Origin: Geosiphon pyriformis uo1
Taxonomy: Eukaryota; Fungi; Glomeromycota
DNA: 64,000 nt
NCBI GenBank assembly: GCA_016748015.1
Contig: JAAOMT010000617.1
Span: 814,635 to 878,634 of the forward strand
Direction of reading: 5' to 3'
In this document: positions 25,126 to 63,800 of the stretch, one piece after another
Layout: every line of letters starts with the position of its first letter
Numbering within the stretch: position 1 is the stretch's first letter
Notes under the pieces: model-generated
The model's database searches: none
The model's input: the letters and a program-made list of their open reading frames with translations, nothing else
Told to the model about the DNA's origin: nothing
Translations under genes and position numbers: made by a program

Positions 25126-28100
25126 ATGGCAATGCTGGAAATGCCAGAAACAATCGAAGCTCAGGAATATAAACTTGTCCAGCAACCCCAGCAAACAAAT
25201 ATCAAAAATTTGCAAATTCGAGTTTTAGGTGTTCCTCAAAGTGGTGCCAAATCCCGTGTAGAGACCCAAATCAAATTATGTTTGCAACTTGTGACTGATA
25301 AGGGAGAAAAGGTTCCCCTATGGTCTCATTTACGGTTACCCGAATACATGGTGGCAAAAGAAAAGTTAAAGACTAAGAATGCAAGAAATACTCAAGGTCA
25401 AACAATGAACGTTGTGGAAAAAAGTGTTCTCAATCTTGAAGCTACAGTAGTATGTGCTAGTGAAATCCCAAAAGAAGTTGTTACCTGTTTAGGTTGCGTC
25501 CAACGTGAGGTAATTAGAAATTTCTGATTTATTCTTACATATGAATAGTATTTAATTAACGATTGACATGGTCTACAACTCGGAAATCCCAAATCGTTTC
25601 ATTTAGCGCAAAAGATCACAACGAAAAAAGGAACACAAACTCGCCAAAGCCAATGCCAACGGATCTTCTATTGGCGAGGAAGTCAATAAACTGACCGACC
25701 CTGATGATGAAAAATCTCTTCAACTGGAACAAAGGAAAATACTTCTTTTCAACTGCAGTGAGATTGTAGATTTTAGTAGCGGTGATACCATTTTACCAAC
25801 GAGGATTACTTGTTATTGCCGTCACCACAATGAAAAGATAGGATTTTGGTTAATATCTTTTTTTGAAATTATCATTTAAAAATTCTAACAATCACTTAAA
25901 TTACGACATTTATTGTTTTTTTTCTAGCATTTATTTCGTCATGAAAGATTGTAATAATAATGTTATTGCACAGGGGAGATCGCCTCCTATTATGATAACT
26001 GACGATCATAAATCTTCTAAGACAAAAGGTGGCACTCGTTTGAAACGTCCGCGTGAAGAATACGGGCGGCGCAATTCGAGTGTGATTTCTGACTCTCCTA
26101 AATCTCCTGATCGTATAATGAGTCCTCCAATTCCTACCATAGCATCTAATGGATGTTATTCAGGTTCAGCTTCTCCTATCTCGATATTTCCTGCTCAATT
26201 GTCTTGCTCAATGTCAGCTCAACCCCAACCAGTTAAGCAAGAGAATATTCAAATTACCCAACAGATTCAAATACAACCATCTCTAGCCTTCTCATCAATA
26301 CCATCTCCACTCTCACCGATATCTCCGCTGTCCCCTATTTCATCAGATAATTCATTTGATAGTGCATTTCAACTACCCCAACAGTTAGATCATACAAGTA
26401 ATTCCACTTCGATTCCTTCCATGCCTTTCCCATTAGTTCCCAGCAATAATCCGGCCAATGTTTTAGCTAATCTTTCGATAGCCCCTTCCCAAATCAATAA
26501 CCTCAATGCTCTATACCAATCAGTTCAACTTCATAATTACAATAATTCAAATAGGTTCAACATGGGGAATGCGCCGCTTCAGGGAAGCGTAGGTGGTGGT
26601 CCAATAAGACTTCATAACACTATGAACTCTAATTCCATGCTGAGGCGTAATACTTTCTTCAATGGCGTAGCTAATTCTGCCTCGATGTTCACCAATGGAA
26701 GTATTAATGGATTTCCTTTGCCTAGAATGAGCAGGTTAATCCCATCTGAAGGACCTATTTATGGTGGGATAGAAGTAACTGTACTCGGAACTAATTTTTT
26801 TGGTAATTGGCAAACATACCAACATTTCGTTAATTTTACGGAATCCAGGCTCACTTTAATGCTATTTTATTTTTAACAATAATAGATGGTTTAACATGCT
26901 TATTTGGTGATTGTCCTGCAATTCCAACTCAATATTGGGGTCCAAGTGCATTAGTATGTCTGCTTCCTCCTTCGCCAACTCCTGGTCCTGTCATTGTGAG
27001 TTTCAAAGAATTCCAAATGAATGTCCTGGATCCTCCCGAGAGTGAAATTGTCTTGTTTACCTATACTGATGGTATGTATAGCATAAAAATTTTCTAATGA
27101 TTATTTTATATTAATAAAGAGGCGATCATGATCGTTATGAATAGAGTCGGATCGGGCTCTCATGGAGCTTGCCCTTCAAGTCGTAGGAATGAAAATGACA
27201 GGAAAACTAGAGGATGCTCGTAATATAGCTATGAGAATCGTAGGAGGTGAAACTGAAGACGGTCACTCTGGGATCAACGCCGGTAATAGCAATGTCAACG
27301 GAATGGCCAATTCCCTCTCATCTGTTTTTCATGCAACTTCCATGTCAAATAATCTCGAAGAACACATAATGAAAACTTTGAGCTTACTCGATATTTATGA
27401 AACGGAGTACTCGGATACAATATCTTTACAGAATGTTACCAACCATTCTATGTTACATTTTGCTGCTATCCTTGGTTTCGAGAAACTTGCTTCTAATCTC
27501 ATTGAGAGGGGTATCGAGCTAAATTTACAAGATCGCTATGGGTTCACTGGTAATTTAATTATTTAAATTGAATAAGCCGGAAGTAAAAATTGTTTAGAAT
27601 ATAATTTCTAAATCTTATAAGGCTCTTCATTAAATAGCTCTTCATTATGCCGCGTGGACGGGTAATACAGAAATAGTGAGGATATTACTAATAGGTAAGG
27701 TTTCCATATATGTTACATTTGAATATCATAAAGTATTGTATGAACACTTGCATCGAGGATACATTACATGATTAGAATTTTATGGTGTTTCAAATATTTT
27801 ATATATGATCAATTCAATAATGATACTGACATTCTAAATTAATAATCAGCTGGAAACGGGGATGTCATCCGGAATGCTTACGATCAGTACGCTATTGATT
27901 TGGCGCGCTCACGATATTTTGAAGAAATTGTTTACCTAATTGATCATCATCAGCATGATTCTGGAGTATCATTATCTCCAACTTCATCAGACGAATCTTC
28001 CACGGTCCATTCTGAAGATGACAATTGGTACAGTGAAGATGAGGGCGAGAGAAAACTGTTAGTGGATCAAGAGTCTAGAGAAATCCAGATAGCTGCTGAC

Positions 28101-30389: not shown

Positions 30390-33340
30390 ATTTCTTTTAT
30401 AAGTATAGTTTAACTATTATTTAATACATTAAATAATTTCAATTAAATGTAACTTATGTATTTACTACATATAACCAATTACTTAAGCCAATTAAGACAA
30501 TACTATATACTTATATAAACACTAATATTATTATCTAAGCCTGAAAAAATAAATAGATTCTACATAAACCAAAATTTACAATAAATAATTCAATAATACC
30601 AAGCAATTAGACCATTCTATTTAACAAAACATTAAACAATTTACACAAAACATCTGACAAAATTTCTGTATTATTAACCAGACTATTTTTTTTATATCTA
30701 TCTTAAACTTAAATTTAAACAATTATAATACATAACAATGCTCTTTAACCAAATAGTAAATAAATTAATTATTACTAAAACTGTTTTGTTTTTGTTACTA
30801 AAAACTAAAATTGTTTTATTAATTTAATTCTTAAAAACAAAACTCTTGCACAAAATTATGTAAATATTAATATTTGAAATATATAATAAAAAAATCTAAA
30901 ATACCAAAAATATTAAAAAAAACTAAGTCTTTACTAAAAATTTTTACAATTTAACATAATTCAATAGAATTCCAAAATATATAAAAACATTTTTTGAACA
31001 AGTAAAAACATAATTTGGCAGTTTAACATTACTACATATTAAACATAAAATATTCAGATAATTTTTGTTATAAAGTTTTTTTTTAATCACAATTGACAAC
31101 TTTTTATAAACACTTTTTATTAAATATATATAAAATACAATTAAAATCTTACTTATAAAACCAGAAAGCATATGAAAATTCAGTTACTAAATTATAGCAA
31201 TACAAGTCTAGTTAATTTTGCAAATAAATAAATTATTTACAACTTCTAAATTAAAACCTATTTTTTATTAAATACAATAAACAGTTTGATAAATATTATA
31301 AAAAAATAACAAACATTGTCTAAAACAACCAAACTATTAATTAAAATAAACTTCTTACAAACATTTATAAAAAAAATTATATAAGATTATGCTATATTGT
31401 TAATAAAAGCATTGATCTGGTTATTATTAACAATTTTTAAGTAGTTTTTAACTTTTACTTACTATACAAAAATGTTTTTAGACCTAATTAAATTAGCCAT
31501 ATAATATTTTTCTATTTAATACTTGTTTTAAAAATCTAGTAAATACTGTTTGAATTTTAAAATATATATATTAATAATAGTATTACAGATAATTATTTAG
31601 GGTGTTAAAACAAATAACAAACTTGTAACTTGGTGCTTAATAGCTAGAAAGGTTGGTAATTTCTAAAGATTTTAAAGTCTAAAGGTTTTAGTTGAGCTTT
31701 TTGTATAACAAACAGATATTTAATTAATGATTTCTTTTGTAAATTTCTTTTTTTAGCATAATGGTTAATTTATTTTGGCAGTTATACCCTTTTAGTAAGC
31801 TATTCTTAAATTTTTATCTTTATTCCCAGGTTTTTTATCAGGCTATTTTTAATGTTAAATACTCAGTACTTAATTTTTTTAATCAATTAGTAAACAAAAA
31901 ATAAATAAAATAAATAAAAACAAATAAAAAAAATAAAAAAAATAAAAAATTAGTATTTTATTAATAGCTATAATCAAAAGTTATTGGTCTAGTATAATTA
32001 AGTATTGAAGTTTATTAACATGAGTTGTTAATAGTAAAAAAGTAATTAATATTTTTAATCAAGTAACAATAATATAAATTAGATGATAATTAGATATTTT
32101 ATTAATATTGATAAGTTTTCATTTCAAGTTATAAAAAACTATTTTTTAAATAAAAAAATATAGATAAGTAGTTATTGTTAATTATTGTTCTGTTGGAATT
32201 AAATACTTTTTTTGCTTTTAATACTTTTGTTATATATATATAATTTATGTTATATAAGATTCCTTGATATTCTGCAATTTCTTAAGAAAAATCCTAAAAT
32301 TTTTTTTTTACTACATTTATTTCTAATTGGCGATTTTATTTATTATTATAATTTCTATTTTTTATGAGTAACAACAACTTGGCTGTTTATATATAAGACT
32401 ATTAAACAAAACAAAGAAACACACTTTAGAGTCAAGACAATTGTCTGTAATTTAGTTATAGTAGAAAACAACAATCTATAAATTTTTATATCTATATTCA
32501 TATTAATATTAGAAAAATAAACTGCTGTTTTATCTGCCATTTTTACAGTATTCAAATTTTTTAATAAACTATCAATGTATACATTAATCACTTTTTTTAT
32601 ATTTTATACAAATGTTCTTAAACATCTGAAAATTTTTTTAAGCATAAAAAATTCAAACAACTAGAATTAAAAATAGTTTTATTAGACTTAACAAGTAAAC
32701 TACTTATGTAAACCACAGTTTTTTGAATCATAATAATATTAAATTCTTAAGACTTAGCTTTTTTCAATAACAAAATATTTTTCAATTCATAACTAATCCA
32801 TATTTATTCAACAATTTGTTTTTAAAAACAATATTTTTATGTTTTAAAGACTGAATTATTTTAAAATAATAAGAATTTTCCAAAATTCCAAATATTAAAA
32901 AACAATTAGAAACTTTAAATATATTAAATATATTGTTTACTATAGAAAACTTGTTTTTCAAAAAAAATTTCATAACACTCACCAAAAAATTATTAATTAA
33001 ATTAACTTTCAATTTAACTGAATACTATAGTAAATTTATAAGTGCCTATTTTAAAATTTGCAAATTTAAAGAACAATATATAAAAAGCCAGCTAAAAATG
33101 TCTACAATATTAGCAAACACAATTACTGAAACCTACTTTGTTTTTTATCTATACTTACTTAAAAAACTTTAATTTATATAGCAATAAATAATACAAAGTC
33201 TTATTAAAAAAATTTCTTAGTAAATTGGTTTTAGATTTAAGCTTTCTTCTTATTAAATTTAATTTATTATTAAAAAAATCAACAATAATAATTGAATATA
33301 TGTAAAAAGTACAATAAAATAATAATAACAACAATATTTA
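30390..33340 (-). mobile_element. Heavily hypermutated LINE relic (RNase H to 3' UTR) containing a solo LTR
   Basis: ORF 32355-32591 VYIDSLLKNLN...TKLQTIVLTLKCV is a G>A/C>T version of the LINE RNase H; relic 3' UTR hairpin near 30472-30495; boundaries approximate. Confidence 0.75.
31581..32373 (-). mobile_element. Degenerate solo LTR of the gypsy family
   Basis: tattacagataattattt... start and ...atgagtaaca end; flanks ATAG/ACAA fit a mutated ACAG TSD. Confidence 0.8.
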
Positions 33341-39342: not shown

Positions 39343-40200
39343 TGTTACAGATGATTATTTGGGGTCTCAAATCAAATAACAAATCTGTAACTTGGTGCTT
39401 AATATCTTGACAAAACTGGTGACACTGGTATGTTGGTTGTATCTGAAGGTTTTAGAGTTGAGTCCTTTGTATAATGGACAGAGATTTAATTGATGGTTTT
39501 ATCCGTAGCTTCCTGAAACTGCAGTTTTGTCAAATTTCTTTCTCAGCATGGTGGCCAGTAATCCTCTTGGTAAGCTATCCTCAAATCTATGAGTGTTCTA
39601 TCTTTGTTTTATGGGTCTTTTACCAGTCCCTATGATGTCTGTATCTTAATGCTTAATCCTTAATCAATTTTAGTAAAACCAAAGAAATAACAAAAGAAAT
39701 AAAAGAAAATAAAAGAAAATAAAGAAAATAACAAAAGCAATTGCAAGTTAGTATTCCATCAATAGCCGTAATCAAGAGCTATTGTTCCAGTATAGTTAAG
39801 TATCAATTACTATCAACATTTCATGTTGATAGTAAAGAGTGAATTGAGATAGTGAATGATTATTTATTGATATTTTGTGAATTGGAAAGTTGCTTAGATG
39901 AAATCTAAACTGAAAGGTCTTCTAACTAAGGATTCTGCCTTTCCTATTTCTAATACTACTGCTATATATACATAATTGAGATTCCTCAATTCCTCGATTC
40001 TTCACCTCAGGAATCTTGCAATTTCTTTTGAGAGGAATCCTGGAATTCTGGAATCTTGCAATTCCTCACATGGAGAATCCTGAAATTCCTGGAATCCTGC
40101 AATTCCTCTTGAGAGGAATCCTGGAATTTCACATTTACTACAGCTATCTCTGATTGGCTATTTCATATGCTAATATATTTTCTATATTCTATGAGTAACA
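39343..40200 (-). repeat. 3' LTR of gypsy B
   Basis: TGTTAC/GTAACA termini; aligns without gaps to 58805-59662. Confidence 0.95.
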
Positions 40201-40216
40201 TTATTCTCTCTTTTTT
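40201..40216 (-). promoter_or_regulatory. Polypurine tract of gypsy B
   Basis: AAAAAAGAGAGAATAA immediately before the 3' LTR. Confidence 0.8.
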
Positions 40217-40862
40217 AATATTGAGCTCTATCAAGATCTCCTAAATCTCCTAAATCTCCTAACTCTAATTTTTTGTTGTTGAGTATTTTTTGAACTTCTC
40301 TTTCGAAAATTATTTGAGTTATCTGGTTCTGCAATTCTTCAAATTGGGTGTTGGTTATTTTTTCCATTTGGTTAATTGTAAATGGAGTCCAATTCTGGAT
40401 TGAGTAAGATTTCCAGTCTGTCTTAAAATTCCATATGTAGCTGATAGATGGCTCTTGCTTGTGTGGTCAAATTGTTCTTTCCCATAAATTGTTCTAGTTG
40501 TTGCAGTATTGTTGTGTTGAATAATTGTTTTGTTTTATCCATGTATAGTTCTGAATGTTCAAGTGTTGTTCCAAGTGGAAGTAATAGAAGTTTTTTGGAA
40601 ATTCATGTATCCACTATTTTCATGTTTCTTTGGTCAACTCTTGATATGTGGTAACACTTGTTGGTTCCTTAATTGCTAATTTTATTTTTAGAACCATTTT
40701 GTTGATGGTGTTTTCTGTTTTTTTTTTACTTTTGTATTTGGGTATCTTTCTGGTATTTCGGTATTGAATGGTTTGTTGATTAATAGTAATTTTCATATTC
40801 TGTTGTTGAATCAATTGGAATAGTTGTTGTGCTAGTAAGTGGATGTTATTGGTAATCTCCAT
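40215..40862 (-). pseudogene. gypsy B ORF3 (unknown protein)
   Basis: MEITNNIHLLAQQLFQ...ELTKET*K*W...DRAQY*; two compensating frameshifts relative to copy C. Confidence 0.75.
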
Positions 40863-42330: not shown

Positions 42331-45300
42331 TTAGATTTGTCTTATTTGCGACAATCTGTCAGCATTTCTATTGTCTTTTCCTTTTTTATAATATATTGTA
42401 TAATTGAATAATAAAAGTTCTATTTTCTATCTAGCATGATGATTATCTGCAAATTTTTGTTTCTGGATTGAAGTCAATCTTTTGTGACCCATATATATTT
42501 TAAACTTTTGGCTTAAGTATTCTCTTTATTTGATGACAGCCCAATAGATTGCTAAGTGTTCCAATGCTGGAGTTCCATAGTTCTTTTCTGCTGGGCTTAA
42601 ACTTCTACTGGCATAAGCTACTAAATGCTCTTTTTCATCGGATTTTTTCTGTGATAGTACTGCTTCCAATGCTTGACCTGATGCATTAGTAATAATAATA
42701 AATGGTTTGTTGTAATTTAGATACATCAATATTGGAGCTTGGATAAGCTTTCTTCTCAATGTGTTAAATGCTTTTTGTTGAGCTTCTGTCTATTCATACT
42801 TCACATTCTTGGTTTGTAGATGGTGAAGTGGTTGAGCCAGTTTAGAAAAGTTCTTGATAAAGTGGTAATAATAGCCTATGAATTTCAAAAATGCCCTTAG
42901 TTCTGACAAGTTGGTTGGTACTGGAAAGTTCTTAACTACTTCAATCTTGTCTGGATCTGTTTTGATTCCATTTTTGCTTACCACATGTCCCAAAAACTTG
43001 AGTTCAGTTTTTCTAAAGAAACATTTGGTTGCATTTAGTTTTAATCCAGCTCTTCTTAACCTTTTGAATACTTATTGAAGATGATGCAAATAATCATCGA
43101 ATGTTTTTGAAAACACATTGGTGTCATCTAAGTATACAACTACTGATTTCCATAGTAATCTAGTATAGACAATTTCCATGAGCTGTTGGAATGTTGCTGA
43201 AGCATTCATCAAGCCAAATAGCATAACTTTAAACTCAAAATTTTCTTCTCTTATAGTGAATGCTGTTTTTTCTTTGTCGGCTGGATCCATGGCTACTTAC
43301 CAGTAACCACTATCTAAGTCCAGTATTAAGAACCATTTATTTTCTTCAAAAGCATTGAATAGTTCTTGGATCTTTGGCATTGGATAGCTATCATCTTTTG
43401 TTACTTCATTTAGTTTCCAATAGTCTATACAAAAACAAATTTTTCCATTCTTCTTGTGAACTAGTACTACTGATGACAACCATGAACTCATTGATGACTG
43501 AATTAGCTTGTTGTTAAGCATCTGGTTGATTTCTTGACAAATGATCTCATGGCTAGCTGGTGGTACTCTGTATGCTCTTTGTTTAATTGGCATTGTATCT
43601 CTAGTCTTAATTTGATGCTGGATAATGTTGATTTGGCCAAATTCATTTTTGCTAGCAAAAATGTCATTGAAATTGTTGAGTAACATCTTGAGTTGCATCT
43701 GTTAAAGTGGATCTAGATTCCCCATGTTTATCTGTTCCAATTGTTCTGGTTAGAGCAGATAACATTTACTTCGTCTGTAGATAGTTTGTGATGTAATGTC
43801 TACATATCCACAAAGCTATGGAAAATCTGAAATGTTTGGTGGTTGATCCTCAACTTCAGTGGTCAAATATTCAATAATAGTTCCCTTTGGTATTTCAATG
43901 ACACTTCCAGTTGTGTTGTAGATGAGAATTTTGATGTTTTTGGGGCTTTTGGCTGATATGTAGAGATTAGTGAGTCCAATTCTCCCTGATTCACAAATGG
44001 TGGCTTCTGTTTCAAACAACTGAGTCTGATTCTTTACTTCTCTTTTTATATATAACATATACTGGTCATATGGTGGAATGGAAATTGATTGATGAGTTGA
44101 GATAATTTCTTTTTTGTCAATAACCTTTTCCTTCATCATATTAACTAGTATGTTTATTCTACCCATTGATCTGAATTCCTGTATTCCTTTAGCAGTAATT
44201 CCTAATTTTTTTCTGTTTTCCATTGATACTAACTGAGCTATTTTAACCAAGGGTAAAAATATTACCTGTGCTATCTTTTCATTTAGCTCTATAATATAGG
44301 CCTTTTCTGAGTCATTTTGTAGCATTGTGATAATATTTCCTACATATTCCGCATCAATTATTCCTCCTCTGATGTTTATCCCTCTTTTTGCTAGACTACT
44401 CCTAGATGTTAACTGAACCATGATAGTAGCTGGGATTTCCATCGCTACTTTCAAATCAATGCATGTACATGAATGTGGTTTCAGTTTGATGGTCTTTTTT
44501 CCAGGATATCTTAGGTCAAACCCTGTATCAGTATTATGTGCACATTTTAGCATAATCCTTTTCTCATTATTGCTGAACCATTTCAAGATCTGTTCCTTGG
44601 TGAGATCAGAGAGTGTGATATATATTTCTGGGTTTGAATTGGAATCCAAATCACTGTTATTTTTGTTGCCAATTTGAATGGAGCTGGAACCAGTGTTTTT
44701 GTCATCATCATTGTCAGAGTTTGAATCGGAATCGAAAACTGATTCTGATTCTAATATGCAGCTGCTGATTGGTTCTTTTTCTTCTGGGATTGTGTAGATC
44801 ATACATGATGGTGGATTGTAAATAAGGTTGCACTCATTACAATATTCAAAGTTACTTAGAATTAAACAATGGCAGCACAATCTGGTGTTTAATTGTTCTA
44901 GCCATTGTTCTTGCTCTTCTCTGGTGGATGCCAAACGTTGGTAGTGTTCATGAAATTCTTCTAGTTCCAATAGGTTTATGACTGGTTCTGAGTCCCAGTC
45001 AAGTTCTATTGGTTCTGGTGGGTTGTTTTTAATTTCTCTGATCTCCTCGGGTAATGCTCCTTCTATTTTAGCAAGTGCCATTTGCCAGATCTTGTTGTTG
45101 TTGTGTAGACAACTGTCCAGATGTCTCACAGCTCTTCTCCAAGCGACTTCTATTGGTGTTCTTTTCTTAACCCAATTGCTAATTAGAATCATGTATTGAC
45201 ACAATTTGTCACACATTTCTTTTTGTTCTGAAATGTTATTCCATATTCTTTCGTCCAAGAGAGTTTTTCCACAAATAAGACAAGGTTGGTTGTCTCATTT

Positions 45301-48039: not shown

Positions 48040-48932
48040 TGTTACAGGTGATTATTTGGGGTCTCAAATCAAATAATAAACTCATAACTTGGTGCTCAAA
48101 GAGCTGTTTGTGTTGGATAGTAATCTGAAAGTTTTGTAGTCTGAAGGTTTTGTTAGAGTTCTTTGTATAATAGACAGAAATTTAATAGTTGTTTTATCTG
48201 TAGCTTCCCAGAATTGCAATTCTGTCAATTCTTCTCTTGGCGTGGTGGCCAGCAATTCTCTGGTAAGTATTCTGTATCTACCATACATGTCCTATCCACT
48301 TACAGAGATTTTTTACCAGGCAATCTTTGATGTCAGTAATTCAGTGCTTTTAATCTTTAATCAGTTAGTGCACAACAACAAAATCAAAAGAAAAAATAAA
48401 GCAAAATAAAAACATAAAGAAAATAAGAAAATAAGAAAATAAGCTAAGACAATATGCAGATTAGTATTTGTCAATAGCCATGATTAAGAGCTATTGTTTT
48501 AGTGTGGTTAAATATCAATTACTATCAACATGGAGTGTTGATAATAAAAAGTAGATTTGGATGGTAAATAATTTATTTATTCAATATTTTGTGAATAGGA
48601 GATTTCTAACTAAAGAATTCTGCTTTTTTCTACTTCTAATGCTACTGCTATATATACATAATTGATGTTTTACAAGATCGCTCACATTTCCAAGCAATGT
48701 GCTATGATTTCTTAAACAATGCTCACATTGCTGAGCAATGTGCTCTAATTTTCTAACATTACAGCACATTGCTAAGCAATGTGCTGTGTTTTTTGACATT
48801 GCTCCATATCGCTGAGCAATGTGCCATAATTTCTGATATTGCTCTATATTGCTGAGCAATGTGCTTACATGCTAAATATTATTCTTTTATTGGTCTGCTA
48901 TTTTCTATATCTATTTTTTTTTATGAGTAACA
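48040..48932 (-). repeat. 3' LTR of gypsy C
   Basis: TGTTAC/GTAACA termini; matches 57374-58267. Confidence 0.95.
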
Positions 48933-48944
48933 TTATCTCCTCTT

Positions 48945-49580
48945 TTAATATTGAGCTCTATCAAAATCTTTGTTTTGAATTAATTCTAATACTTTTTTTT
49001 CAAGTATTGTTTGTTTGACTCTGTTCTTCACATTTTTTACTTGTGTATTGTTCATTCTTCCCTATTGGTTAATGGTTATAATTTCCATGTCAGAGTGTAA
49101 CAGTATTTCTGGATAGTTCTGAAATATGTTGTGTAGTCAATAAATTGTTCTTACATATAGTGTTGAGTTTGTTTTTTTCCCAATAAATTCTTTAATTTGC
49201 TGTATTATATTTTGGTTAAATACTCTCTTAGATTTGTTGATATACAACTTCTGAATATTCAACTTTTGACCTAGCTGGTAGTAACAGTATGATATTAGAA
49301 GTTGTTCTGTCCATTGCTTTTAATTTTCTTTTGTAAGCTCTTCAGTTGGTACCATAGTAGGTATTTTTCCAAAAGTGTTCTTTACTTTTTCTACTACCTT
49401 ATCTGACCAGTTTTTATTGTTCTTTAGTGGTCGCTAATATGGTGTATTCTCTGTCTTTCTTCTGGTGTTTTGATAACAGATAGTTTGGTTATTAATAATA
49501 ATTTCCATATCTAACTGTTGTTGACTTAAGGCTTGAAACAATTGTTAAGCTATTGTGTGAATATGATCTGGTATTTCCAT
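48945..49580 (-). pseudogene. gypsy C ORF3 (unknown, ~211 codons in one frame)
   Basis: MEIPDHIHTIA*QLFQ...YYQLGQKLNIQKLY...RTIY*LHNIFQNYPEILL...DFDRAQY*; five in-frame stops, no frameshift. Confidence 0.8.
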
Positions 49581-49633
49581 TTTTTTGTTGCTTTTGTTAC
49601 GTATATTGTGTCTTTATATATTCTTTTAATTGT

Positions 49634-51011
49634 TCAATTTATCATGTTTGGTGTAATTATTATGATTGGTTTCAGATCTTGTGGAATTTCATCTGGTTGG
49701 ACTATTATTTTCTGTACTCTTAATCATAGAATATTACTGGTAGATAGTGGTGTTATATTGTGGTATAGTTTTAGTTGATTTTCATGTGCTGCTTTGGTCA
49801 AAATTTTGTTGTTCAATCTTAATTTATAAGCTCTATTTCCTAGAATTTCTTCTATGTGAAATGGTCTGTCCCATTTGGAGTCAAATTTTCCACTCCATTG
49901 TTTTTCCACTTTGGTACAATATAGAAGTACTTTGTCTCCAATCTTGAATTCAACTGGTTTGTCTGATAGTTGACTATCATGTCTTTTTTTCTGTTTCTCT
50001 TGTGACTTTTGAATGTTATCAGCTGCTCTTCTTTGTTTGTTTTCCAGTGTTTCCATTAAGTTATATGTCTTTTTCAACAGTGTTTCCTGAAAATTCTCTT
50101 TTGTTATTGGTTCAGTTGGATATGTGTTAACTTCTATCTCAACTGGTATTGTTGCTGTTCTACCATATACTAATTCAAATGGTGTTGCTTGTATAGTATC
50201 TTGCTTTATTGTCTAATATGCAAATAGTACTGATGGTATAAACAAATCCCATTCATTCTGGTTTTTTTAGCTGAGTTTGGCAATTGCTTTACACAATATT
50301 CTATTAAATCTTTCAACTAAACCATTTGTTTGTAGATGATATGGTGATGGGTCTTTTAATTTCGAATCTTTGGCTCAATTCTGCTAGTGTTCTGTTCACA
50401 AAGTGAGTTCCTTGGTCTGATAATAATTCTTTTGGACATCCATGTTGACAAATCAGATCTTGATAAATGAATTCGGCAACGGATTTTGCATCTACTCTTT
50501 GAATTGCTTTTGCTTCTGGCCATTTAGTAAGATAGTCCATGGCTACTGCAATATATCTATTTCCTCTGCTGGTAATTGTTAATGGTCCAATTAAGTCAAT
50601 TCCAATGTGATCAAATGGTTGTCCCACTTTGATTGGTTTCAGTGGTTTACTGGGTTTTGTTCCTTTTCTTCTTTAACAAGAATTACAATTTTGGACATAT
50701 TGAATAATGTCTGAATACATTGATGGCCAATAGTATCTTTTTCTGGTCTTTTCCATGGTTGCTTCTTTGTGGAAATGTTCTGCTGTTGGATCTGAGTGTA
50801 TGTTGAACAGTATTGTTTCTTTCTTTGGTTCTGTAACTACTCTAATTGATTGATCTGAATTTTGTCTATTTTTCTAATAAAGTATGTTTTGGTAAGTGAT
50901 AAAGTATTTTGATTGTTGTTTGATACTATTTTGTTCTGATTGAGATAATTTCTCCTTGAACTGTTGAGTATCTATATAATGTTTGAGTTGTTAGTATTTT
51001 TGTGTGTTTAT
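49634..51011 (-). pseudogene. gypsy C integrase, stand-alone ORF
   Basis: ORFs 50313-50627 (DHIGIDLIGPL...SDQGTHF) and 49724-50077 (KWDRPFHI). Confidence 0.92.
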
Positions 51012-51072
51012 CTTTTGTTATATTTTCGTTGAATTTGGTTTGGTTTTGTTATATTTTTGGGTTGAAATGTTC

Positions 51073-54000
51073 TTAGATTTGTCTTATTTGTGATAAACCG
51101 TTTACATTTCCATTGTCTTTTCCCTTTTTATAATGTATGATATAAGTATATGGCGAGAATGCTTTTTTCCATCTGGATTGTTTGTCATCTCCAAATTCTT
51201 GTTTTTGGAGTGATGTCAGTTCTTTGTGATCTGTATACACCTCAAACTTCTGGTTTAAGTATTTTTTCCATTTCATAACTGCCCAATAAATTGCTAAATG
51301 TTCTAGTTCTGATGTTCCATAATTTCTTTCAGCTGGCATATGCAACTGGATGTTCTTTTCCATCTGGTTCTCTCTGTGATAGTACTGCTTTCAATGTTTG
51401 GCCTGATGCATCAGTGGTAATAATGAATAGTTTATTGTGATCTGAATAAATCAGTACTGGAGCTTGTATAAGCTTTCTTCTTAGAATATTAAAAGCTTTT
51501 TGTTGTGCTTCTGTCTATTTGTATTTCACATTTTTGGTTTGGAGATGATTGAGTGTTTGGGCTATCTTAGAAAAGTTTTTGATGAAGCATTAATAATAGC
51601 CTGCGAATCTCAAGAATGACTTTAATTCTGTTACATTGGTTGGTACTGGAAAGTTCTTAACTATCTCTATCTTTTCTGGATCCGTTTTGATGCTGTTTTT
51701 GCTTACTATGTGCCCTAAAAAGTTTAATTCTGTCTTGCCAAAGAAGCACTTATTGGCATTCAACTTTAGCTCTGCTCATTGTAGTCTTTCAAACATTTGT
51801 TGTAAATGATGCAAATGATCATCAAATGTTTTGGAGAACACATTGGTGTTATCTAAATAAACAACTACTAATTTCTACAATAAGCCAGTATATACTATTT
51901 CCATTAGCTGTTGAAATATGGCTGGAGTATTTATCAAGCCGAATGGCATGACTTCAAACTCAAAATTCTCTTTTTTCGTCGTAAAAGCTGTTTTTTCTTT
52001 GTCTGCTGGATCCATGACTACCTGCCAGCATTCACTGTTTAGATCCAGTATTAAAAACCATTTATTTCCTCTAAAAGCATCAAATAGTTCCTGGATTTGT
52101 GAAGTTGGATAGTTGTCTCCATGGGTGACTCCATTAAGTTTTCTGTAGTCCACACAAAATCTGATCTTTCTATTCTTCTTCTGGACAAGTACCACTGGTG
52201 ATGACTATAGGCTCATAGATGGCTGAATTAGCCTGTTGTCAAGCATTCAGTTAATTTCTTGATGGATAATCTCATGGCTGGCTGGTGGTACTCTGTATGC
52301 TTATTGTTTGATTGGCATAGCATCCCCAGTCTTGATCTGATGTTGGATGATGTCAGTTCTGCCAAATTTGTTTTCACTAGCAAAGATGTTATTGAAGTTG
52401 TTGAGTAACATCTTGAGTTGTATACATTGGAGCGAATTTAAATTTTCCATGTTCATTTGTTCCAATTGTTCTGGTTGGAGCAAATAACATTTATTTTGTC
52501 CATAGATTGTTTGTGATGTAATATTCATGTATTCGCATAATTGTGAAAAGTCTGGAATAATGCTTGGTGGTTGATTTTCTAATTCAGTGCTTATGTATCC
52601 AATGATAGTTCCCTCTGATATTGTAATAGCATCTCCTGTGATGTTGTAAATGGGAATTTTGATATAATTGTGGTTTTTGGCTGGTATGTAGAGATTGATG
52701 AGTCCAATCTCTTCTAATTTACAAAAGTTTGTTTCTGCTTCAAAAATCTGATCCTTATCTTTCATTTTTCTCTCTATAATTACCATGTACTGATTATATG
52801 GTGGAATGGAAATTACTTGACCAGTTGAGATAATTTCTCCTTGGTCAATCATTTTTTCTTCTGCCATATTGACTGGTACATCTATTTTATCTGTGGATCT
52901 AAATCCCTGTATTCCTCTAGCTGTTATCCCTAATTCTTCTCTTTTTCCCACTGATACTAACTGAGCTACTTTAACCAGAGGCAGGAATATTGTCTGTGCT
53001 ATTTTTTTATTAGGTTCTATGATATAGGTCTTTTCTGAGTCATTTTGTAGCATTGCCATGATATTTCTTATATATTTGGCATCAATTATTTCTCCTCTTA
53101 TAGTAATCCCTTTTTTTGCTAAACTACTTCTGAAAGCTAGTTGAACCATGGTTGTTGCTGGTATTTTCAATGCTATTTTCAGATCAATGCAAATGCATGA
53201 ATGTGGCTTTAATTTGATGACATCTTTCTCTAGATACCTCAGATTAAACCTAGCATTAATATTATGCACATGTTCTGGTATGATCTCTTCCTCATTATCA
53301 CTGAACCATTTCAAGGTCTGCTTCTTAGTGAGATCAAGGAGCATGATATATATTTCTGGGTTTGAATCAGAGTCCCAATTGCTGTTGTTTTTGTTGCCAT
53401 TTTGAACAGAGCTGGAACTGGTGTTTTTGTTGTCATCATTGTCAGAGTTTAAATTGGGATTGAATGGCAATTCTGATTCTGATGCACAGCTGCTGATTGG
53501 TTCTTCTTCTTCTGGAATTGTATAAATCATGTGTGATGGTGGATTGTAAATGAGGTCACAATTATCACAGAATTGGAAGTCATATGAAATTAAACAGTAG
53601 TCACATAATTAAATATTGATTTTCTCCAAACGTTGATCTTGCTCTTCTCTCATAAGTGCCAAATTCTGATAGTATTTATGGAATTCTTCTGGGCTGTTTT
53701 TTAAGTCGAGAAAAGCATCCAGATTGAGAACCAAAACAATGTCTGTTGGTTTTGGAGGGTTGTTTTTAATCTCCAGAATTTCACTGGGCAAAGCACCTTC
53801 TACTTTGGCATTGGCCATTCACCAAATCTCGTCCTTGTCATGTAGATAATCTTCTAAGCAAGAGATTGCTCAGTGTTAGACTGCTGTGATGAGTGTTCCA
53901 TGACTCACCCAGTTACTGATGAGGATTGTGTACTGGCACAAAGCATCACACATTCTCTCTTGATTAGGAATGTCATTCAACATCCCTTTGTCGAGCAGTT

Positions 54001-57000
54001 GTTTTCCACAAGTGAGACATGGTTTATTGTCCCACTTGTCTTGTCTCTTGGGGTACCCATAGTGTTCGCAGTGGCATGGTTTGCAATAGTAATGGGTGCA
54101 CATCCAGTAGTCTTTATCTGATGCAACTCAAGCTCCCATTGAGAACAACTTCTTGTTGCAGTCTTTACACTTAAGAGGAATACACAATGGTTCTGGTCTG
54201 GTGTTGGTTGAGTAGGATTTTCTCTAGCCACTGGTGTTGGCTTTGGTGGTTTCATTGGTTTCAAGTCAGTTTTCTTCATTTCCTTTCTCTTTTTCTTGAT
54301 TGCTTTCCTCCCACTCTCAAATTAATAGGTCTTCTTGATTGTTGTTGACTTCCCAGGCTTGGTTAGTGTTCCAGGTAAGTTTTTTCTTTCCTTTTCCCTT
54401 TTCTTGGTATTGTTGTTCCAGGCAAGTATTGGCAGCAGTTTGTTGTGATCAACATTGGCCCACGACACTTGATATGCTTCTCAGGTGGGTTTTAGCTTCT
54501 CTTCTTCCAAGTCAATTAGTGGGGCTGGCATGTGACTGGGTTTGAAATGGTCACATGTTGCTGGTACTTGTGTGTGTCAGCTGTTTTGGCTAAGTTGCAA
54601 CTTCTGAGTGGTCCAATCAAGGATAGCATTTGTTTTGGTAAGCCAGTTATTACCAACTAGCACTTGGTACTAAGTGGCTTTCATAACTAATACTTTAATT
54701 GAGATAATTATGCCATTGACTTCTATAGGGAAGTTGTCAATTTTGCCAATAAGAGTTTTGGTTGCTTTATCAGCAGTAATAATTCTTGCACTGGCAGCTC
54801 AATCAACTCGGCAACCTAATTGATCCATGAGTTGTCTTGTAATGATACTGCCAGCTGATCTATTATCTAGGATCAATTTGATGAGGTGGCCATCAACTTT
54901 TGTATCAGTGTACATTGCCATGATGGGTTTTTCCTCTAAGGCGGCTCCACTGAATAGTGGTACTATTTTGGTTTCTTCAAGTTTAAAAGAAAATATGGTG
55001 GCCAATGTTTTGTCATTGGTGACAGTGGCTGAAGGTATGTTGCTAGTAAGTGCTGGTTGTTAATTGGATTCTGAATTGTGGAAGATGGTGTTTTTTAGAG
55101 TAACCAAGAGACTTAAATAGTGTTAGGAATTCAGATTTTGGGTGGAACTGGTATGTGAATTCTATTGACAAGAACCAGATTGTTGTGTTGATGAACTGGA
55201 AATCAGTTGGTGAATTATTATTGCCAATCTCCAGTTTTGTTGTGTTATTTTTAGCCTTTCGGTTCTGTTTTGAGATAAGTTTTGTGGTGGTGTTTGAATT
55301 TGGAGTGTTTGATAGGTTAACTAGGGCTGCGGCTGATAAATTATTGATGGCTGTAGTTGATAGATGGTCTGTGGTTGATATACTGGAGTTTAATATACCA
55401 GTGGTTGATAGATTGGCTGTTGTATTATGGGCTAATAAGTAGATTGATCTTAATTTTGATAGCTATTTGGAGTTTGGAACCAGTGATTGGAGTTTCAATA
55501 TTGATTTCTTAATCATGAATTGCTATAAGTATGGCAATTGACTTAAATATGGCTTTGTTTACCACAGTTATGACAGACACGTGTCTCTTGCTGCCACAGC
55601 TGATTGGAGGACATTGGAAAATGCGACTGATTTTGGAAATGATTGACATTTCTTGGATTACTGTGTCGTTGTGAAGGTTGATAGATTAGGTGATTGTTAG
55701 CTAAGTATCCTTTTAATTTCTGATTAATTGAATCGCTGAATTGTTTCAATTTGGAATCCAGTTCAGATGATCCATTTATTACTAGGTTTACGGCTTGAAT
55801 ATGATTGGTCTCTAACTCTGCTGACTTGAAATCCTTGGCATGTGTAACTGTGTCTTAAAGAGTGTTGGGATGCAATATGCATACATGCTGCAAGATGCTA
55901 CTGCACAGGCCACAGATAAACTGGTTGAGAATTTGTGGTGCTGTAAAATAGTTAGCGTCAATTGCTTGAATTTATCGCAGATTTCTATGAAATCATCCCA
56001 GGTAAGTGGTGACTACTTCAGTTTTTCTTTGTTTAATAGTAGTAAAAGTGTTGGCCAAGTGATTAATACTATTATTATTACTGAAATATCTTAAAAACTC
56101 CAGTTTGAATTCTTGGAAGATTTGTGGTCTGGCTGCTAAACTTTGATACCAGGAATCAGCAGTATCCTGAAGAAAGTATGGAATTGCTTGAAGGGCTCTT
56201 TGGTCATCCCAATTATTCACCATGATTGCTTTGGTGACATTATTGATCCATGCCTGGACGTCATCCTCTTTACCAGTGAACTTTTCAAGTCTCGCGATTG
56301 GTGCAAACACCATGAATTGTTGTTGTTGCTGTAGAGATAGTACTGATAACTGTTGCATTGGCTGTTGTGAGTGTTAAATTGGTTGTTGAAATGGCTGTGG
56401 TTGAATCAGTTCAATTGGGGGCTGATTGATGATGATTTCTGGAGGTAAGTTTTGCTGATTGATTGTTTTGGAGTTTCGATTATCCTGAATTGGCGGTGTC
56501 TGAATATTCGGAGTTTTAATTTCTGGGTTTTCTGGATTTAGATTTTGCTGGGTTTGAGGATTTGGAGTTTCAAATTCCAGATTTTCAGTGATTGGGTTCT
56601 GATAAGTAAATTCTTGATCCTTGGATTCTTCTTCCTCTTCCTCTTCTTGTTTTCTTTCTGATTCAGTGATTTCCCACAGACTCGCTGTTCTGAAATCTGA
56701 TTGAAGTGGTGGGAATCGAAATCCTGATAGCATTGGCAATTTAGATTTAAATTCTTCAAAATATTTGCCATATGGTCCTAATAAATCCTCTTTCCTTTGT
56801 TTATTTTGAAATAAAAATTTTCCAAATGCTGATGTCGCAGTTGCTGTAAATGTGTCTGTTGATGTTATATTAATGGTGCTTCCAGGTGTATAATGGTATG
56901 ATGGGTTGGTTGGTGATTCAACTCTTGTTTTCTTTCAAGTAGGTGGTTGTATCCTTTGGGGTGTTACTGCTGGTGTTTGTAGTTTTTCTTTACCTTTACT

Positions 57001-57312
57001 TGCATAAGTAATTGGGTATTTTTGCTGTGTGTGATATTCGATTTCTTTGTTAATCTCAGTGATGATAGATGCGAAATTATGATTTGTTGGTAGGCTGGTA
57101 TTTTGAATTAATTTGTTGTAAAAAGTTTTTCTTGCTGATTCAATATTTATTGATGTACCCAACAAATATGCAATTCTCTTATTGACATAAAAATTGAAGA
57201 CTGATTCTGCTGATATGTAATTATAGTTCAATTCTAAGTATTAGCAATAATGTTGAAATAAAGATTTCATGAATCTTAGATGGTTTGTTTCTATACTTTC
57301 TGATTCTGCCAC
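51073..57312 (-). pseudogene. gypsy C gag-PR-Cys-rich-dUTPase-RT-RNase H polyprotein
   Basis: Gag capsid (LEKFTGKEDD...W...W), CHNCGKQSH knuckle, YQP-rich linker, protease LILDNRS, dUTPase, RT, RNase H; gag and protease fragments share one frame. Confidence 0.93.
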
Positions 57313-57354
57313 TTTTGGATAAAGTTGTTGGTACTGGTTCTTTGTAGGATTATA

Positions 57355-57371
57355 CCTCACAGGAAGCACCA
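57355..57371 (-). promoter_or_regulatory. Primer-binding site of gypsy C
   Basis: TGGTGCTTCCTGTGAGG 2 nt after the 5' LTR, complementary to a tRNA ending CCUCACAGGAAGCACCA. Confidence 0.85.
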
Positions 57372-57373
57372 AA

Positions 57374-58267
57374 TATTACAGGTGATTATTTGGAATCTCA
57401 AATCAAATAACAAACCCATAACCTAGTGCTCAAAGGGCTGTTCATGTTGAATAGTAATCTAAAGGTTTTGTAGTCTGAAGGTTTTGTTAGAGTTCTTTGT
57501 ATAATGGACAGAAATTCAATGATTGTTTTATCCATAGCTTCCCAGAATTGCAATTCAGTTAATTCTTCTCTTGGCGTGATGGCCGGCAATCCACTGGTAA
57601 GTATTCTGTATTTACCATACATGTCCTACCCACTCGCAGGAGTTTTTTACCAGACAATTTTTGATGTTAGTAATTCAGCATTTTTAATCTTTAATCAGTT
57701 AATGCACAACAACAAAATCAAAAGAAAAAATAAAGCAAAATAAGAACATAAAGAAAATATGAAAATAAAAAAATAAGCCAAGGTAATATGCAGATTAGTA
57801 TTCGTCAATAGCCATAATCAAGAGCTATTGTTCCAGTATGATTAAGTATTGATTACTATTAATATGGAGTGTTGATAGTAAAAAGTAGATTTGGATGGTA
57901 AATAATTTATTTATTCAATATTTTGTGAATAGGAGATTTTTAACTAAAGGATTCTGCTTTTTTCTACTTCTAATGCTACTGCTATATATACATAATTAAT
58001 GTTCTATGAGATCGCTTATATTTCCAAGCAATGTGCTATGATTTTTTGAGCAATGCTCACATTGCTGAGTGATGTGCTCTAATTTTCTAACATTGCTCCA
58101 TATTGCTAAGCAATGTGCTGTGTTTTCTGACATTGCTTCATATTGCTGAGCAATGTGTCATAATTTCTGACATTGCTCCACATTGTTGAGCAATGTGCTC
58201 ATGTGCTAAATACTATTCTTTTATTGGTCTGCTATTTTCCATATCTATTTTCTTTTTATGAGTAATA
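57374..58267 (-). repeat. 5' LTR of gypsy C
   Basis: Matches 48040-48932; followed by the PBS. Confidence 0.95.
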
Positions 58268-58804: not shown

Positions 58805-59662
58805 TATTACAGATGATTATTTGGGATCTCAAATCAAATAACAAATCCATAACTTGGTGCTCAATATCTTGACAAGGCTGATAACACTGGTATTTTGGTT
58901 GTATCTGAAGGTTTTAAAGTTGAGTCTTTTGTATAATGGACAGAGATTTAATTGATGGTTTTATTTGTAGCTTCCCAAAACTGCAGTTTCATCAAATTTC
59001 TTTCTCAGCGTAGTGGCCAGTAATTCTCCTGGTAAGCTATCCTCAAATCTATGAGTGTTCTATCCTTGTTTCACAGGTCTTTTACCAGTTCTTATGACGT
59101 CTGTATCTTAGTGCTTAATCCTTAATCAATTTTAGTAAAACCAAAGAAATAACAAAAAAAATAAAAGAAAATAAAAGAAAATAAAGAAAATAACAAAAGC
59201 AATTACAAGTTAGTATTCCATCAATAACCGTAATCAAGAGCTATTGTTTCAGTGTAGTTAAGTATCAATTACTATCAACATTTCATGTTGATAGTAAAGA
59301 GTGAATTGAGATAGTGAATGGTTATTTATTGATATTTTGTGAATTAAAAAGTTGCTTAGATAAAATCTAAACTGAGAAGTCTTCTAACTAAGAATTCTGC
59401 CTTTCCTACTTTTAACACTACTGCTATATATACATAATTGAGATTCCTCAATTCTTCAATTTTTTATTTCAGAAATCTTGCAATTCTTTTTGAGAGGAAT
59501 CTTGGAATTCTGGAATTCTGCAATTCTTCACATAGAAAATCCTGAAATTCCTGGAATTCTGCAATTTCTCTTGAGAGGAATTCTGGAATTCCACATTTAC
59601 TATGGCTACCTTTGATTGGTTATTTCATATGCTAATATATTTTTTATATTCTATGAGTAACA
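58805..59662 (-). repeat. 5' LTR of gypsy B
   Basis: Matches 39343-40200. Confidence 0.95.
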
Positions 59663-60879: not shown

Positions 60880-63800
60880 GTTAATAATAATATTCTTAAA
60901 ACATAAAACATAACTAGTATATAAAATTATCTATAAATAAATAAAAAAATAAAAAATAATTAAATATAATATAATTAACTAATTATATAATAAAAATTAC
61001 CAAAATATATAATATTAAAATAGAAATATTAAAAGTTTTAAAAATGCTAAGAATTTCAACAATAATTTAAGAAAAATTATAAAGATTCCAGAAATTTTAT
61101 ATTATAAAAATTTAAATATATATAATAAAAATATTAAAACAGAAAAAACAAGTTCAATTTTATTTATATCAAATAACTTTTATAGTTAACAACTTAATAC
61201 TTAAAATAAAATACTTATTTACAATAAATTTCTTATTTAAATTATTTAATTTTTAATATTTATAAATCTATATTTATCTTATTAAAAAGTTAATTATTTT
61301 TTTATTAATGCTAATAATATTAATTTAATACTATTAACAATACAAAAACAATAGCCTTTAATTATAACTATTAATAGAATATTAATTTTCTATTTTTTTA
61401 ATTTTATTTTTTTAAGTTTTATTTTATATTTACTAATTAATTAAGAAAAAAGTGTTAAAATTATGACATTAAGAATTATTTAATAAAAAATATAAAGAAA
61501 AACATAAAAAATAATCAAAAAATTAAAATTGTTTATTAAAAAAACAAAAAACACCAATATAAATTAATTATTATTTTAAAAAAATTAAATATTAAGTATT
61601 ATTTATTATTATTATTAAATTTTTGTCTATTATACAAAAAACTTAAATATTTTAATCTTTAGATTATAATTAAAAATAAGAGTATTAACTTATAAAATAA
61701 TAATTATTAATCAATTAACTATAATATTTAGTGTTTTTTATAAAATATAATTTACAAAAAACAAATACTATTAAATTTAATTAGCAAAAGTAATAGAATT
61801 AAAATTTATAAAAACAAAATATTTAAATCTAAACTTAATTACTAACTATTTTTTAATAGAAATAATATTTAATTTTTATATTAACAAAAGAATTAAATAC
61901 AATTTAAGAGAAATAGTTAATTCAAAATTTGCAAAAATAAAGTTTTACAAAGAATTTAAACAAAATATTAATTACTATCAATCTTACAATTTTGCAAGTA
62001 TTTTAATAAAAATTTACTTCAAAATATATAATTATATACAAAAAAAATTTTTATTTATTACAAAAAACAACAGATTTAATTTATTAATTCAAATATCTAT
62101 AATATTTAAAAAAATAATTATATTTTTATAAAAAAAAATCAGAATTGTTTGCTTTTAAAATTATTATATTATTATATTTTCAAAAATACTATTCAAATTC
62201 TATTAAAAACTGTATTAATATTTACACTCTAATTAAACTTATTTTTTAAAGTTGTCTTAAAAGTATTTATTTATTAAGTAAATTTAAAAAATATTTTAAA
62301 AGATTTAGATTACAATTATCTATGTCTATATTATTTTAATTACTATTTTTTAAACTTAATTTTAGTTTTACCAATAATTAGAAAAATATCAAGTCAAAAA
62401 AAATTAAAAAAATTAAAAAAAAACTGATTTTAAAATTTACTATATTTTAACTTTAATAATAATTTAAAATTCAATAGTTTTAAATCCAAGTGTATTAGTA
62501 AATTTATTATTAATATTAATTATTAAAGCTCTATAATTATTATTAATATTAATATATGTACTTTTTTTATTACTAATATTAATAATATATATACTTATTA
62601 TAAACTAAAAAAATCTATTAATACAAAAAATAATATTTAAGTCTAACTTAATAATATAAAAAACCATAATTACTAATAATTAAGATAATATTAAAGCTTT
62701 ATAAACAATTTCATATTTTTTGTAAAACATAATAGACTTATGATATTAAAGTTTTATTATAAAACTTAACATATTTAATGTTTTTAAAATGGTATTTTTA
62801 CAATATTCTAGCAATTATAATAGTATTATTTAGTTATAAAGTTATTTTAACATAATTAAATTAAGAAATAATAAAACAGTTACTTATTTAAGATGTTTTT
62901 ATTATTATTTATATTAAATTTAAATAATTAATACCAATTATTATACTGTTTTTCAAATTCCAAATTAATTTATTAAAAAATTACACAGTAGTATTTTTTA
63001 AAAAGTCTGTTTATTATGTTTAAACAATTTTCAAACAGCTGTTAAATTTGTTAAAAATTTTAAATTAATTTAATTAAAAACCAATTATGTTTAAACCATT
63101 AACTTAATAATAAATAAATTATCTAAATTGAATATCAAATTAAAATAATTTAGTAATAATATTAACCAAAAATTAAAGAAATATTTAATTAATAATTAGA
63201 TAACTATTAACTTTTATAATATTATAAAAACAATTAAAACAACAATTATTTTTAAAATTAAACATAATTATTATTATCTATTTAAATATAATAATAAAAA
63301 ACCCAAATTTGTAATTATTATTAAACAAAATTATATTAAAATTAATTATTATTTATAACTAAGTAATCAATAATTAAAAAACCTATATTAAAACTTTAAT
63401 TACAAATTTTAAACTTTAAACTACAGATTTAAAGCTTTATAAAAACAATATTAGTCATTATAATATTATGTATTAGCTTTATAACTACTTTAATAACAAT
63501 TTATTTATGTGTTTTATTTTTAATTACAATTATAAATTACTAATCAATTATATTTATAATTTTTAATTTAAATACAAATTAAAAACCAAAACTTATTCAA
63601 CAAAATTAGTAATTAACAATAATTACTTATTAATTAATTTTTAATAACAATGGCCAATAACATAAAATATATAATTATTATTCTTAAATTTTCAAAACTA
63701 TTTAAATTTTTTTGCTATAACAGAAATTCAATAAAATAATATTAGTTTAGAATTTTATTATCTTAATAATAATAATATTATATTTGTAATTATTATCAAA

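Follow-up and report, generated by a model that had tools for sequence, protein, structure and literature searches.

Related elements and regulators

Extra open reading frames (ORFs) at the env position of LTR retrotransposons are already known (PMC5408684, PMC2864245). The LTR elements of bdelloid rotifers, which also bear a dUTPase, carry family-specific third ORFs at this position (GDSL, DEDDy, TM, and CC types; PMC5408684). In PosPlaTy3-5 and other fungal Gypsy elements, the dUTPase is located between the protease (PR) and the reverse transcriptase (RT), and a figure legend of the same source marks an "add. ORF" of unknown function in some of them (PMC2864245). The VANC protein of the Arabidopsis VANDAL elements is encoded by the transposon itself; its short target motif is tandemly amplified in non-coding element DNA, with family-wise divergence, in a host that methylates transposable elements (TEs) (PMC5735166). 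The Tas/Bel1 gene of the foamy viruses is a small regulatory gene that lies after the structural genes and before the 3' LTR, with an internal promoter, and encodes a dimeric DNA-binding activator of the LTR (PMC4929722). In Tnt1, Retrolyc1, and Retrosol, distinct U3 blocks are found on a conserved coding backbone; the modular change of U3 in Tnt1 was attributed to different selection on U3 and RNase H (RH) (PMC1838419). LTR elements make up 41.2% of the Geosiphon pyriformis genome (PMC11952901), and in a related mycorrhizal fungus TEs are methylated at CG (PMC8647823).

The window analysed here is a stretch of 64,000 nucleotides of G. pyriformis DNA (contig JAAOMT010000617.1). It contains three related LTR elements (A, B, and C), all on the minus strand. 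In all three of these decayed, dUTPase-bearing Ty3/gypsy copies, an additional ORF (ORF3) is located between the integrase stop and the polypurine tract (PPT). As in PosPlaTy3-5, the dUTPase lies between PR and RT, and ORF3 resembles the "add. ORF" by description. Unlike the elements of PMC2864245, as far as that source describes them, the integrase is here a separate ORF, and the extra ORF occurs in deep types that are paired with types of U3 array. The third ORFs of the rotifers are enzymes or membrane proteins of recognisable families (PMC5408684), whereas the fungal ORF3 matches none. The arrangement of distinct U3 blocks on a conserved coding backbone is shared with Tnt1 and its relatives, but these are plant Ty1/copia elements, and no extra gene is named as travelling with U3 in the portion of PMC1838419 used.

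The locus also shares features with VANC, in that short motifs are tandemly amplified in non-coding element DNA and differ by family. However, the VANDALs are DNA transposons with 8-9-mer motifs in the same orientation, unlike the LTR element here, and binding and demethylation were shown for VANC (PMC5735166), while we infer them for ORF3. No Pfam or PDB match of ORF3 points to VANC. With Tas, ORF3 shares its position; Tas, however, comes from an Env-bearing retrovirus of vertebrates and binds the internal promoter as well (PMC4929722), whereas no full palindrome is found near the ORF3 spacer. No homology of ORF3 to VANC or Tas is claimed; both are taken as models of how such a protein might work. 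In the literature apart from supplements, no description of the ORF3 family was found (it might be included in the TE library of PMC11952901 or in Additional file 1 of PMC2864245), nor was a self-encoded, subfamily-specific regulator in an LTR retrotransposon found in the same literature.

Organization of the elements

The host genes of the window carry CMAS and SPT23/MGA2 domains, which indicates fungal DNA. They encode a cyclopropane-fatty-acid synthase-like methyltransferase and an SPT23/MGA2-like factor, at 23195-24547 (-) and 25854-26873 (+). Element C (48040-58267, -) consists of gag-PR-dUTPase-RT-RH, a stop, an integrase with an SH3-like tail, and ORF3. It is nested within element B (39343-59662, -), which it interrupts and whose LTRs are 92% identical, with the target site duplication (TSD) CCAA. 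Element A is truncated at the window edge and hosts a solo LTR (3302-4124, +), which has a B-type U3 array and was inserted with the TSD ATGT. The 3' LTR of C (48040-48932, -) is 90% identical to its 5' LTR (about 57374-58267), with a 4-bp TSD, GCAA; the PPT and a 3-nt link to this LTR (48933-48944, -) directly follow the ORF3 stop. LTR pairs with TG...CA ends, TSDs, and a PPT were thus found; the 5' LTR of C begins with a decayed TA. The LTR pairs (90-92% identical) differ almost entirely by transitions, and the observed/expected ratio of CpG is 0.13-0.17 in the elements vs 0.83 in the host DNA.

The TSDs are located at 48036-48039/58268-58271 (GCAA), 39339-39342/59663-59666 (CCAA), and 3298-3301/4125-4128 (ATGT). 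In all three the middle is CA or TG, which matches insertion at CpG and subsequent decay. AT-rich older remnants (10-18% GC) at 31575-32400, 60989-61669, and 62702-63211 comprise a decayed LTR of the same family and decayed gag-like DNA. An ORF with an RNase H domain (PF00075; 11266-12051, +) lies outside the LTR elements and is probably from another retroelement.

The order gag, PR, RT, RH, integrase is that of Ty3/gypsy elements. Retrotrans_gag, dUTPase, and rve were found above the Pfam cut-off and SH3_Tf2-1 below it; PR, RT, and RH were identified by motif in the translation. In each of the three copies, RT-RH terminates with a TAA stop at the corresponding position (the 51075 region in C, about 42330 in B, and about 1930 in A), so the integrase is a separate ORF. 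As the integrase is not in frame with RT-RH in one Pol, this is an atypical Ty3/gypsy lineage. Before the dUTPase (52304-53608 and 43819-45294) lie a stretch rich in cysteine and an acidic linker, which have no Pfam name. About 150 helical-looking codons precede the recognisable Gag in C (56938-57375), with no Pfam match above the cut-off.

The integrase stop of C (49636-49634) and a 53-nt spacer occupy 49581-49636 (-). At 49620-49612 the spacer contains a TATA-like TATATAAAG, common to all three copies, and the ORF3 ATG is preceded by an A-run whose length varies. Another TGA upstream (49726-49724) is private to C. At the true integrase stop, the sole variant is still a stop (among the 40 of 46 differences listed), and the A-run is longer by 1 nt in 26% and by 2 nt in 14% of the depth. 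There is therefore no fixed in-frame fusion, and ORF3 is an ORF of its own; an in-frame extension of the integrase was considered and is ruled out, the stop being kept and the spacer length varying.

ORF3 reading frames

ORF3 of copy C (48945-49580, -) has 211 codons and a stop in one frame, with five internal stops, and is 78% identical to an intact natural copy, the uninterrupted 211-aa protein G9A89_010852 (P0002) annotated in G. pyriformis. Its stop codon adjoins the PPT and the start of the LTR. The extra ORF proposed from the sequence-only reading, in the frame 49580-48945 between integrase stop and PPT, is thus present as described. The single frame of C and the simple C>T/G>A nature of its stops were also borne out: all five can be derived from the codons implied by the P0002 residues by C>T or G>A transitions only, one of them requiring two changes. 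In a DNA run, the sense codon is found in most of the depth at no fewer than three of these five stops (among the 40 of 220 differences listed).

ORF3 of copy A (1-461, -) is of the C type, with 153 codons in the same frame and 10 stops, and is cut by the window edge. ORF3 of copy B (40215-40862, -) represents a second type. It had been read as one ORF from 40862 to 40215, which holds for its first and last parts; the earlier reading overlooked that the middle, about 40551-40381, is shifted by two compensating 1-nt indels. All seven motifs listed as shared between B and C were found. Two of them, QQ...F.GK and R.IY.LH, lie in the second frame of B owing to these indels. Near the end of the B ORF3, a 9-bp tandem repeat (40236-40266) expands an acidic LGD motif in frame, which is shorter in other B-type homologues.

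Selection and homologues

Codon-position analysis showed an excess of differences at the third position and a deficit at the second. The differences at positions 1/2/3 are 82/50/99 for C-B (p 3e-4), 70/37/75 for A-B (p 9e-4), and 38/17/56 for A-C (p 3e-5); the LTR control gave 52/50/49. The dN/dS (NG86) in the ORF3 frame is 0.23, 0.21, and 0.20 across the three pairs, where the dS of the pairs with B is near saturation (B-C dS 1.72); the bootstrap range for A-C is 0.10-0.33. The five other frames gave 0.56-1.64, and LTR pseudo-frames 0.51-0.68. A ratio of about 0.2, and not near 1, indicates purifying selection, and ORF3 is almost certainly a real gene that has been maintained by it.

The closest named relatives of the ORF3 in the window are G. 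pyriformis proteins (76-83% identity). A representative search gave 55 matches at E<=0.001, and a profile search gave 49 matches at E<=1 (47 G. pyriformis and two ENA). The 19 distinct proteins looked up from both searches comprise 17 from G. pyriformis and two from ENA assemblies. The G. pyriformis entries are mostly incomplete gene models from decayed copies; the full-length natural copies have 211-234 aa. A tree of 20 chosen sequences has six groups, which are 16-38% identical over the core, and one of which comes from the ENA assemblies. These homologues agree with the claim that the protein is retained across subfamilies. The two ENA proteins have 234 aa, share 86% identity, and end in EEEIMLP, which resembles the translation of the PPT-LTR junction of C (KEEIMLL); judged by this likeness, the ENA ORF3s are probably at the same position. 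The gene model P0065 (G9A89_013235) fuses two different ORF3 types; its first domain represents the sixth group, has the ENA pair as its nearest neighbour, and terminates with LEEEG, a PPT-like reading. Searches of JGI metagenomes, IMG/VR, GTDB, and GenBank phages, which required exact short peptides and covered few fungal genomes, gave no relatives of either ORF3 or the integrase tail. The PPT-LTR pattern was found at 29 viral loci, and HMMs detected neither ORF3 nor integrase at any of them.

Protein features and fold searches

The maximum 19-residue hydropathy is 0.44-0.51 for P0001 and P0002 and 1.07-1.33 for the ENA homologues (four full-length sequences). These low values indicate no transmembrane segment, and the N-terminus is not hydrophobic either, in accordance with the earlier view that ORF3 is not a classical Env. 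P0002 is basic (pI 9.3), whereas the ENA homologues are acidic (pI 5.2-5.9), which counts against a DNA-binding role. Two AlphaFold2 models, whose alignments largely overlap, both show an N-terminal helix and β-hairpin at low confidence, a disordered basic linker, and a helical core predicted with confidence. The mean pLDDT is 73 for P0002 and 80 for P0046, with the core of the latter near 90; the N-terminal module (residues 1-45) has pLDDT 47-67 and was modelled only within the full protein. A homodimer prediction scored 0.00 with the alignment left out, which is evidence neither way. ORF3 is thus predicted to be a soluble, mostly helical protein. The suggestion of a soluble helical accessory protein kept across subfamilies fits these models, while the evidence on its function leans to a putative DNA-binding regulator of its own U3; a role in trafficking or as integrase partner, which had also been offered, is not supported by anything examined.

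The ORF3 family matches no recognised family or fold in the libraries searched. No Pfam family was matched (in one search, among the 25 of 41 families listed), including the HTH and the Env families. PHROGs gave no named family; the best E-value, 0.0012, was to an unnamed family and came from one of 27 members. Of two sequence searches of the PDB, one gave a best E of 0.1 and the other no match, and Foldseek of the AlphaFold2 models against PDB and BFVD gave none at E<=0.001. These Pfam, PHROGs, PDB, and fold searches thus identified no described gypsy accessory domain. In the ESM Atlas, two unnamed Mucoromycota clusters (190 aa and 127 aa) and a closterovirus coat cluster were listed, all at low recognition.

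The VIA fold searches (library of 48,161; noise level Z 8; rows within 1 Z tied) also gave no match at Z>=5. The top structural neighbour of the ORF3 core was the HTH domain of the ParB/Spo0J/KorB/SopB type, several members of which recurred. With the better model, Spo0J/ParB 1vz0 ranked 1 of 48,161 (Z 4.6, rmsd 5.5, 92 aligned), which is under the noise level and not significant. ParB 6s6h (3.8), Raf1 6kkn (3.8), and KorB 1r71 (3.5) matched the same region within the top 24 of 48,161, and unrelated helical proteins scored Z 4.0-4.3. With the other model, SopB and Spo0J scored Z 2.9; the ParB-HTH idea was raised from this first model, before the second ranked Spo0J first. When hhalign was run with 38 ParB/KorB domains, the top local alignment was located in the HTH, with a score of 12.9-13.4 against block-shuffle maxima of 14.3-15.5, and the control YhcG_N vs ParB reached 30.6. 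The profiles HTH_ParB/KorB (PF17762, PF08535) thus gave no ORF3 match in Pfam and an hhalign score within the shuffle range. A ParB-type ancestry of ORF3 is doubtful on these scores. ORF3 also differs from ParB in having no N-terminal CTPase domain and an extra N-terminal module of helix and β-hairpin. A ParB-like domain fused to a methyltransferase has been described in the Ectocarpus DNA transposon Sola1, a different protein from ORF3 (PMC12477816). Kinship with DUF3102 (PF11300) and YhcG_N (DUF1016_N, PF17761), suggested by a likeness of motifs, was unsupported (hhalign 13.6-14.5, within the shuffles); this comparison used 26 and 68 sequences and had low power, as the DUF3102-YhcG_N control was itself weak (19.9).

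U3 arrays and the mosaic structure of copy A

The U3 arrays are located upstream of the LTR TATA box. The C-type array has a 40-bp period, and each unit contains a CACATTGC-n3-GCAATGTG palindrome. It is found with 4.6 copies in the 3' LTR of C (48680-48865, -; five palindromes), in the 5' LTR of C (58027-58200, -; four palindromes), and in a shorter form in the 5' LTR of A (9662-9743, -; two decayed palindromes). The B-type array (40010-40128, -) has a 41-bp period and three copies with GGAATT/GATTCC motifs; it is also present in the 5' LTR of B (59479-59592, -). The period is 40-41 bp in both types although their sequences do not align. A TATA-containing LTR motif (48645-48662, -), common to A, B, C, and the solo LTR, marks the lower edge of the U3 block that has been swapped.

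The C 3', C 5', and A 5' LTRs contain 11, 12, and 4 C-type half-sites (shuffle maxima 4, 5, and 3), and B contains none; the B LTRs have 12 and 10 B-type motifs (shuffle maxima 7 and 5), which are absent from C and A. In six LTRs the counts exceed all 500 shuffles, which shows repetition and not an independent prediction, since the motifs were picked by eye from the same LTRs. The seventh, a decayed LTR at 31575-32400, has two B-type motifs (shuffle maximum 3), and its type is not assignable by motif count. No full C-type palindrome was found outside the LTRs, including the vicinity of the spacer TATA. At one half-site position, the left matches have 13 TG and one CA, and the 20 right matches include 11 CA and four CG; these states suggest an ancestral CpG at this position.

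The ORF3 type tracks the U3 array type in the three copies. Upstream of the TATA, U3 identity is 88% for C-A, 50% for C-B, and 47% for A-B; over the 250 nt from the TATA onward, every pair has 77-83% identity. A further gene model of the C type, P0009, continues into a U3 that is also of the C type. In the capsid region (two windows), the transversion distance is 0.02-0.03 for A-B vs 0.08-0.09 for A-C, and in ORF3 it is 0.07-0.09 for A-C vs 0.19-0.25 for A-B; all pairs have 0.004-0.05 in the integrase. Copy A is therefore a mosaic, with a B-like capsid region and a C-like ORF3 and U3, which points to recombination. This mosaic and the U3 arrays had both escaped the sequence-only reading. The R/U5 of A was also considered as B-like, and this was rejected, as it is 83% identical to both B and C. 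Between B and C, transversions are about eight-fold higher in ORF3 (0.17-0.25) than in the integrase (0.014-0.04). ORF3 and U3 have thus quite likely been exchanged as one cassette; some of the divergence in ORF3 may reflect rapid evolution instead of exchange. The pairing rests on three related copies of two types, which are not independent, and linkage alone predicts co-inheritance, since ORF3 and U3 are adjacent at the 3' end of the genomic RNA.

Possible function of ORF3

Taken together, a small LTR-adjacent gene with a possible HTH core, phased palindromes upstream of the TATA box, deep matched types, and a methylating host suggest that the element encodes a type-specific regulator of its promoter. 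We give a probability of roughly 0.4 to the reading that ORF3 is a sequence-specific regulator of its own LTR, working in a manner like that of VANC or Tas. ORF3 might be expressed from the spacer, either by its own TATA-like box or by re-initiation after the integrase stop. The core (about residues 85-200) would hold a ParB-like helix-turn-helix, and a dimer could bind the U3 palindromes at sites about four helical turns apart. The bound protein would keep its own LTR active against host CpG methylation. Protein and array would evolve jointly and be transferred from one pol backbone to another as a single 3' cassette. The putative binding of ORF3 to its own U3 array has slightly less than even odds; if it does bind, it would probably be an activator or anti-silencer rather than a repressor. 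The fullest form of this proposal, a Ty3/gypsy lineage with its own transcription or anti-silencing factor, a ParB-like HTH of prokaryotic ancestry, and a lock-and-key ORF3+U3 cassette per subfamily exchanged between pol backbones, is unlikely to hold in every part.

The U3 arrays might instead bind host transcription factors, as in a Tnt1-like modular U3, with ORF3 acting elsewhere, for example in the handling of RNA, the assembly of particles, or the suppression of host RNAi, and hitchhiking by adjacency. This explanation is a substantial one, although its odds are clearly below even. Physical linkage accounts for the pairing without further assumption, the similarity to ParB lacks significance, a modular U3 has been described in Tnt1 (PMC1838419), and non-Env third ORFs of varied function occur in the rotifer elements (PMC5408684). 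The swapped block is, however, tightly bounded by the integrase stop and the LTR TATA, and the two unalignable array types have the same period; both fit a matched pair of protein and array, while not requiring one. With only three related copies, regulation by ORF3 and linkage are not separable. A role of ORF3 as integrase cofactor or targeting factor, a chromodomain equivalent kept as a separate gene beside an integrase that is also a separate ORF, would agree with its place directly after the integrase, with the stop that cuts the integrase from RT-RH at the same site in all three copies, and with the CA or TG, like decayed CpG, in the middle of the TSDs GCAA, CCAA, and ATGT. It is improbable, as the B-C divergence of ORF3 is about eight-fold above that of the integrase and different ORF3 types occur on nearly the same integrase, whereas a tight partner is expected to track it.

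Even less probable is an origin of ORF3 from the coat protein of a filamentous virus, which would coat the element RNA or cDNA, perhaps for movement in coenocytic hyphae. In the feature search of the ESM Atlas, Closter_coat (PF01785) appears at 0.93 for P0002 and 0.91 for P0046, and chain 6v7b_a of Pyrobaculum filamentous virus 2 took second place among the fold matches (Z 4.3, rmsd 3.1, 67 aligned). However, the Atlas recognition values (2030 and 2116) are under the 2300 mark and the shared features (156 and 138) under 170, PF01785 was unmatched for 11 proteins at E<=1, and Foldseek against BFVD gave no hit at E<=0.001, with no named closterovirus coat protein among the best 50 rows, some of which are nameless. 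That ORF3 is a remnant of Env or a fusogen is hardly credible: its position between pol and the 3' LTR is the one point in favour, while hydropathy contradicts it by the lack of any hydrophobic segment, the full-length copies of 211-234 aa are predicted to be soluble and helical, and no Env family was matched.

Significance

ORF3 represents an undescribed protein family beside a candidate operator, and one intact natural protein and two DNA probes make the question testable. If binding fails, ORF3 would still be a conserved accessory protein without a recognised fold. If binding is true, the LTR retrotransposon would itself encode, in ORF3, a regulator specific to its subfamily. The protein bears on how LTR elements spread despite silencing.
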